Below are positions 1,350 to 1,736 of a stretch of DNA of 64,000 nt, piece after piece (within the stretch, counting starts at the first letter, position 1; each line of letters starts with the position of its first letter). The position numbers and the translations under genes are program-made. Source of the DNA: Escherichia coli (lineage in GTDB: Bacteria > Pseudomonadota > Gammaproteobacteria > Enterobacterales > Enterobacteriaceae); the NCBI RefSeq assembly GCF_024298765.1, contig NZ_CP101210.1; one strand, 5' to 3'. The notes beneath the pieces were generated by a model. The model made no database searches. It saw nothing but the letters and a program-made list of their open reading frames with translations, and had not been told where the DNA came from.

Positions 1350-1736
1350 TTAACGATACTTCTGGTGATAGGCGTTGCGGGTCGTTTTCAGTTGCTCTGC
1401 GGCAGCCTGCGCTTCTTTTACTTTACCTTCATTTGCCAGCTTCAGCGCGTCGTCAATCTGACCGACCAGAATATCGAAACCGTGGCGGAAGTCTTTCATT
1501 TCCGGGCTGTCCGGTGATTTGCCTTCGAGCTTCGGCGGCGTCGCTTTTTGCGCATCCAGCGCTGCGGCGCGCATCTTCGTTAACGCGTCTTTGACTTGCG
1601 CCGCGTTATCGGCTTTTTCGACCACTTTTAAATTGTCGTTGAGGGTTTCCATATTGTCTTCAAGATCAGCGGCAAACGACGCCGAACTGAATACCAACGA
1701 GGAGACTGCAAGAATAGCTAACAGGCTTTTACGCAT
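1350..1736 (-). CDS. cybC: Soluble cytochrome b562 precursor (intact, with signal peptide)
   Basis: 128 aa ORF; N-terminal signal peptide [22 protein letters not shown] followed by [10 protein letters not shown]..., recognised as cytochrome b562. Confidence 0.92.

Follow-up and report, generated by a model that had tools for sequence, protein, structure and literature searches.

The open reading frame at positions 1350..1736 on the minus strand of the window, the 64,000-nucleotide stretch of Escherichia coli DNA analyzed here, is almost certainly (probability about 0.97) an intact, wild-type cybC of the usual kind, from an E. coli outside the K-12 lineage, and its contrast with K-12 reflects a lineage-specific 26-bp deletion. 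K-12 is the exception, and the strain from which the window derives keeps a normal cybC, as do nearly all E. coli.

The cybC gene and its product

The list of open reading frames gave cybC an ATG start, 128 codons and a TAA stop, and the 128-aa translation ends in RNAYHQKYR. The initial annotation, which gave no strand, had described a 128-aa frame with a complete signal peptide and the full cytochrome b562 sequence, and the open reading frame, Pfam and PDB comparisons all agreed with this description. The protein matched the Pfam family Cytochrom_B562 (PF07361) across profile positions 1-102 of 102, scoring 117.2 bits (cut-off 30; E value 5.8e-34). It was identical to PDB 9tmp_A ('Soluble cytochrome b562', 128 aa) at 126 of 128 residues, end to end, and the two differences were V39 in the window for I39 and G72 in the window for D72 (precursor numbering). 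At least 1000 contigs in public collections encode the exact 128-aa protein, under the name cytochrome b562 (Escherichia coli), and it is identical to the WP_001232246.1-type copies annotated in other E. coli genomes. The gene is likewise annotated in NZ_CP029164.1, a genome that is 100% identical in this region. Over 801 bp around cybC, the window matched E. coli strain 104, from chicken, at 100% identity and K-12 derivatives at 94.3%. The cybC of the window is a real, conserved gene, and its match is far beyond chance.

The mature 106-aa chains in PDB (1apc, 256b and 1qpu) aligned to residues 23-128 of the window protein. Because these chains start at residue 23, residues 1-22 correspond to the signal peptide, which is encoded by codons 1-22 at 1671..1736 (minus strand) and is identical to that of 9tmp_A. 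It is of the Sec type: a basic n-region (RK) precedes a hydrophobic core, and the cleavage motif, SFA, is A-x-A-like. Removal of the signal peptide would leave a mature protein with the N-terminus ADLEDN. Codons 23-128, at 1353..1670 on the minus strand, encode the mature heme protein of 106 residues, which aligned over its full length with the solved chains. The axial heme ligands known from the solved structure of cytochrome b562 (PDB 256B), Met7 and His102 in mature numbering, correspond to Met29 of the precursor at 1650..1652 (minus strand; CAT on the plus strand, ATG on the minus) and to His124 at 1365..1367 (minus strand; GTG on the plus strand, CAC on the minus). Both ligand residues aligned with those of the solved cytochrome b562 chains, and the 98% identity to solved structures implies a four-helix-bundle fold for the window protein. 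A Shine-Dalgarno-like AAGGAA, read from the sequence at 1744..1749 on the minus strand, lies 7 nt upstream of the ATG and presumably serves as the ribosome-binding site.

Cytochrome b562 is a small, soluble, periplasmic electron carrier. The 128-aa precursor would be exported to the periplasm by the Sec system via its 22-residue signal peptide, which would then be cut after SFA to release the 106-residue four-helix bundle. This bundle would bind one non-covalent b-type heme via Met7 and His102, yielding soluble cytochrome b562. Export, heme binding and expression of cybC in the window strain are predicted from sequence and from the literature.

Gene neighborhood and transcription signals

The genes nrdD-nrdG (plus strand) converge on cybC (minus strand), which is followed by pmbA (minus), yjgA (plus) and mpl (minus). 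The position of cybC between nrdG and pmbA (tldE) was the same in the annotated matching genomes. The convergent nrdG and cybC lie 44 bp apart (1306-1349), and this interval is occupied by a hairpin at 1310..1341, with no strand assigned, that has a perfect 14-bp stem and an RNA fold of -23.3 kcal/mol (z -7.1). A consensus terminator scan did not call this hairpin, as it has no T-run on either strand; it is probably a bidirectional transcript end for nrdG and cybC. In some E. coli (e.g. Z1002, locus 407-929), nrdG and cybC are separated by an inserted type II toxin-antitoxin pair, RelE/RelB-DinJ, which replaces the short, hairpin-bearing spacer seen in the window.

On the other side of the gene, a consensus promoter scan of 1250-1950 found no sigma-70 promoter between pmbA and cybC. 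Transcription of cybC may therefore occur by read-through from pmbA or from a promoter inside pmbA.

A 129-bp palindromic element upstream of cybC

An imperfect palindrome of 129 bp, similar to the ERIC/IRU elements, lies at 1756..1884 (no strand assigned) between the pmbA stop codon and the ribosome-binding site of cybC. It lies 19 nt upstream of the cybC ATG, has 26-nt terminal inverted arms and, as RNA, is predicted to fold at -58.4 kcal/mol (z -8.1). The spacer between pmbA and cybC is 182 bp in the window, compared to 54 bp in strain 2EC1, which lacks the element. Among complete E. coli genomes, the element was present at the cybC site in approximately 70% and absent in approximately 28%, the latter being the roughly 1,540 of 5,426 genomes that matched a start-region query at positions 1-107 only. 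Diverged copies with 70-78% identity were found elsewhere in E. coli, the number of places per genome having a median of 3 and a maximum of 6, and these dispersed copies lie at unrelated loci, for example near gppA and nudB.

The element resembles ERIC/IRU sequences, which are imperfect palindromes of about 127 bp that are intergenic, transcribed and present in several dispersed copies. Even with up to 3 mismatches allowed, the ERIC2 primer sequence did not match the element. When aligned with gaps to the 44-nt ERIC core, the window copy agreed at 36 of 44 positions and carried 10 additional bases, in insertions of 4, 4 and 2 nt. The Rfam family V_AS5 (Vibrio) gave a weak full-length match to the element, at 26.4 bits where the gathering score is 96. 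The element was assigned to the ERIC/IRU family provisionally, since the ERIC2 primer failed to match it. If it forms part of the cybC 5' leader, the element could alter transcript stability or translation and so divide E. coli into two natural classes of cytochrome b562 expression, independently of the K-12 deletion, although we regard this proposal as unlikely.

The window cybC could also be intact in sequence but silent, if the insert cut it off from its upstream signals or destabilized the transcript. Its proximity to the ATG (19 nt), its very stable RNA fold and the absence of a sigma-70 consensus promoter between pmbA and cybC are all consistent with such silencing. The insert is, however, also found at the K-12 site and in approximately 70% of complete E. 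coli genomes, where the open reading frame is intact outside K-12; the window gene displays no decay, with 126 of 128 residues identical to the reference protein; and persistence of the intact frame across phylogroups would be surprising for a silent gene. Silencing of the window gene is therefore highly improbable.

A 26-bp deletion removes the start of cybC in K-12

The cybC gene of MG1655 (NC_000913.3), b4236, is annotated as a pseudogene of 368 bp at 4459488..4459855. The initial annotation had described it as a truncated pseudogene, and this description was borne out by both the record and the alignment of the two sequences, in which the MG1655 gene differed in length and sequence from that of the window. 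Pairwise alignment placed the difference in length in a single gap, the 26 bp at 1718..1743 (minus strand) being absent from K-12, so that codons 1-6, the ATG included, are lost. The missing bases, on the gene strand, are GTGAGCA ATG CGT AAA AGC CTG TTA G. Along with the ATG and codons 2-6, K-12 has lost the 7-nt spacer that separates them from the Shine-Dalgarno sequence and one base, the first, of codon 7. The deletion joins GGAA to CTATTC, a junction that the window does not contain, and the remaining 361 bp shared by the two genes are approximately 96% identical. Neither microhomology nor a direct repeat was found at the ends of the deletion in the alignment, so that no deletion mechanism can be proposed.

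Followed back from the junction, the K-12 frame runs into a TGA stop, and the first ATG, GTG or TTG that comes after this stop is the TTG at precursor residue 14, within the signal peptide. Since no such start precedes residue 14, any product made in K-12 would be without the basic n-region (Met-Arg-Lys). The basic n-region is needed for Sec targeting. The loss of spacer, ATG and signal-peptide n-region leaves K-12 with no canonical start codon for an exportable protein.

The contrast with K-12 would be merely one of annotation if the K-12 gene were translated from an ATT at the junction into a working 121-aa protein. PGAP calls the K-12 copy a CDS of 366 bp encoding 'cytochrome b562' (WP_023649327.1), with ATT as its first codon; the 121-aa sequence is found in public collections as 'MULTISPECIES: cytochrome b562'; and the AAGGAA Shine-Dalgarno sequence is kept in K-12. 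ATT is, however, a very weak start codon, it lies merely 3 nt after the Shine-Dalgarno sequence in K-12, and the 121-aa product would be without Met-Arg-Lys-Ser-Leu-Leu-Ala, the positively charged n-region on which Sec targeting depends. [quoted passage not shown] A functional K-12 protein initiated at ATT is accordingly barely credible.

The public records conflict on this point, the MG1655 record listing a pseudogene (locus 2489-2856) and PGAP a CDS in DH1Ec169 (locus 1651-2016). The 121-aa, ATT-start call of PGAP/RefSeq hides the K-12 defect, and could mislead pan-genome comparisons of gene presence and absence.

Distribution and polarity of the deletion

The start region of cybC was surveyed in 5,426 complete E. 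coli genomes. A 40-mer centered on the K-12 junction, which matches only genomes that bear the deletion, was found in 355 of the 5,426, each at 100% identity. Among the matches listed (60 of the 355), all were K-12 derivatives as judged by name, by the K-12 serotype O16:H48 or by K-12 genome size. Named K-12 derivatives with the junction included MG1655, BW25113, DH1, DH5alpha, C600, J53, MC4100, TG1, S17-1, HMS174 and NCM3722. A 151-bp probe of the start region matched 5,425 of the 5,426 genomes, and among rows sampled evenly down the ranking the region was split in two only in the K-12 class.

A shorter, 52-bp probe of the start region matched 4,614 genomes, which left 457 with neither a 52-bp nor a junction match. 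Other lesions of the start region were considered for these 457 and set aside, given that the 151-bp probe found the region in 5,425 of 5,426 genomes, unbroken in every non-K-12 row sampled. The shortfall is most probably an effect of SNPs on the 28-mer word of megablast, and not of further deletions. In one genome (NZ_OY754853.1), cybC is interrupted by an IS66-family element (ISEc22-like, with tnpA, tnpB and transposase genes; locus 3151-5999), an inactivation of cybC that is independent of the one in K-12.

Judged by these sequence comparisons, full-length cybC is ancestral and the K-12 deletion is derived and lineage-specific, since the junction is confined to 355 of 5,426 genomes, the start region is present in the other genomes sampled and the Salmonella outgroup has a full-length gene. 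The suggestion in the initial annotation that this strain may retain the ancestral copy therefore stands as far as the form of the gene is concerned, but the strain is not special in this respect, as nearly every non-K-12 E. coli has the same form.

Variation at the C-terminus

In addition to the deletion, K-12 cybC carries D72, A122S and Q126K relative to the window. The latter two go with four base changes that fall within a stretch of 12 bp beside the codon of the His102 ligand. Decay after inactivation of the gene in K-12 was considered as the origin of A122S and Q126K and was rejected: a 52-bp C-terminal allele with both substitutions (locus 2815-2866 in MG1655, equivalent to window positions 1340-1391) was found in 820 genomes, including those of O157:H7, which lack the K-12 junction, and Salmonella also has K at the second position. 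The allele appears to be natural variation, seemingly a polymorphism of long standing or a segment exchanged by recombination.

Relation to published work

An intact cybC outside K-12 and the defect in K-12 were both already known, the defect having been reported by Trower in 1993 (BBA 1143:109-111), as cited in PMC13041623. The lesion described by Trower 1993 is presumably the same 26-bp deletion. The authors of PMC13041623 deleted cybC from a B-lineage expression strain for the reason that native cytochrome b562 of non-K-12 hosts can contaminate BRIL-binding reagents. In PMC6945024, the Keio cybC knockout served as a 'knockout of a pseudogene' control.

Comparison with known systems

The closest known system is the cytochrome b562 of E. 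coli itself, from the B lineage and others (PDB 256B, 1QPU and 9TMP), which has the same gene, length, signal peptide, ligands and nrdG-cybC-pmbA position as the window copy. Soluble cytochrome b562 of E. coli is the parent of the BRIL fusion partner. The crystallized reference is distinguished from the window protein by two substitutions, I39V and D72G, and the window allele is itself common in E. coli. The K-12 pseudogene b4236 is orthologous, and its locus and flanking regions correspond to those of the window copy, down to the ERIC-like insert. Beyond this species, the cytochrome b562 of Escherichia marmotae (128 aa) falls within the same 90% cluster as the window protein. The Salmonella enterica protein C562_SALTY, identified as PDB 4er9 (4ER9) by exact look-up, is also 128 aa in length. 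Its signal peptide agrees with that of the window protein over residues 1-16 and its heme ligands are the same, whereas its mature portion differs by approximately 20 substitutions.
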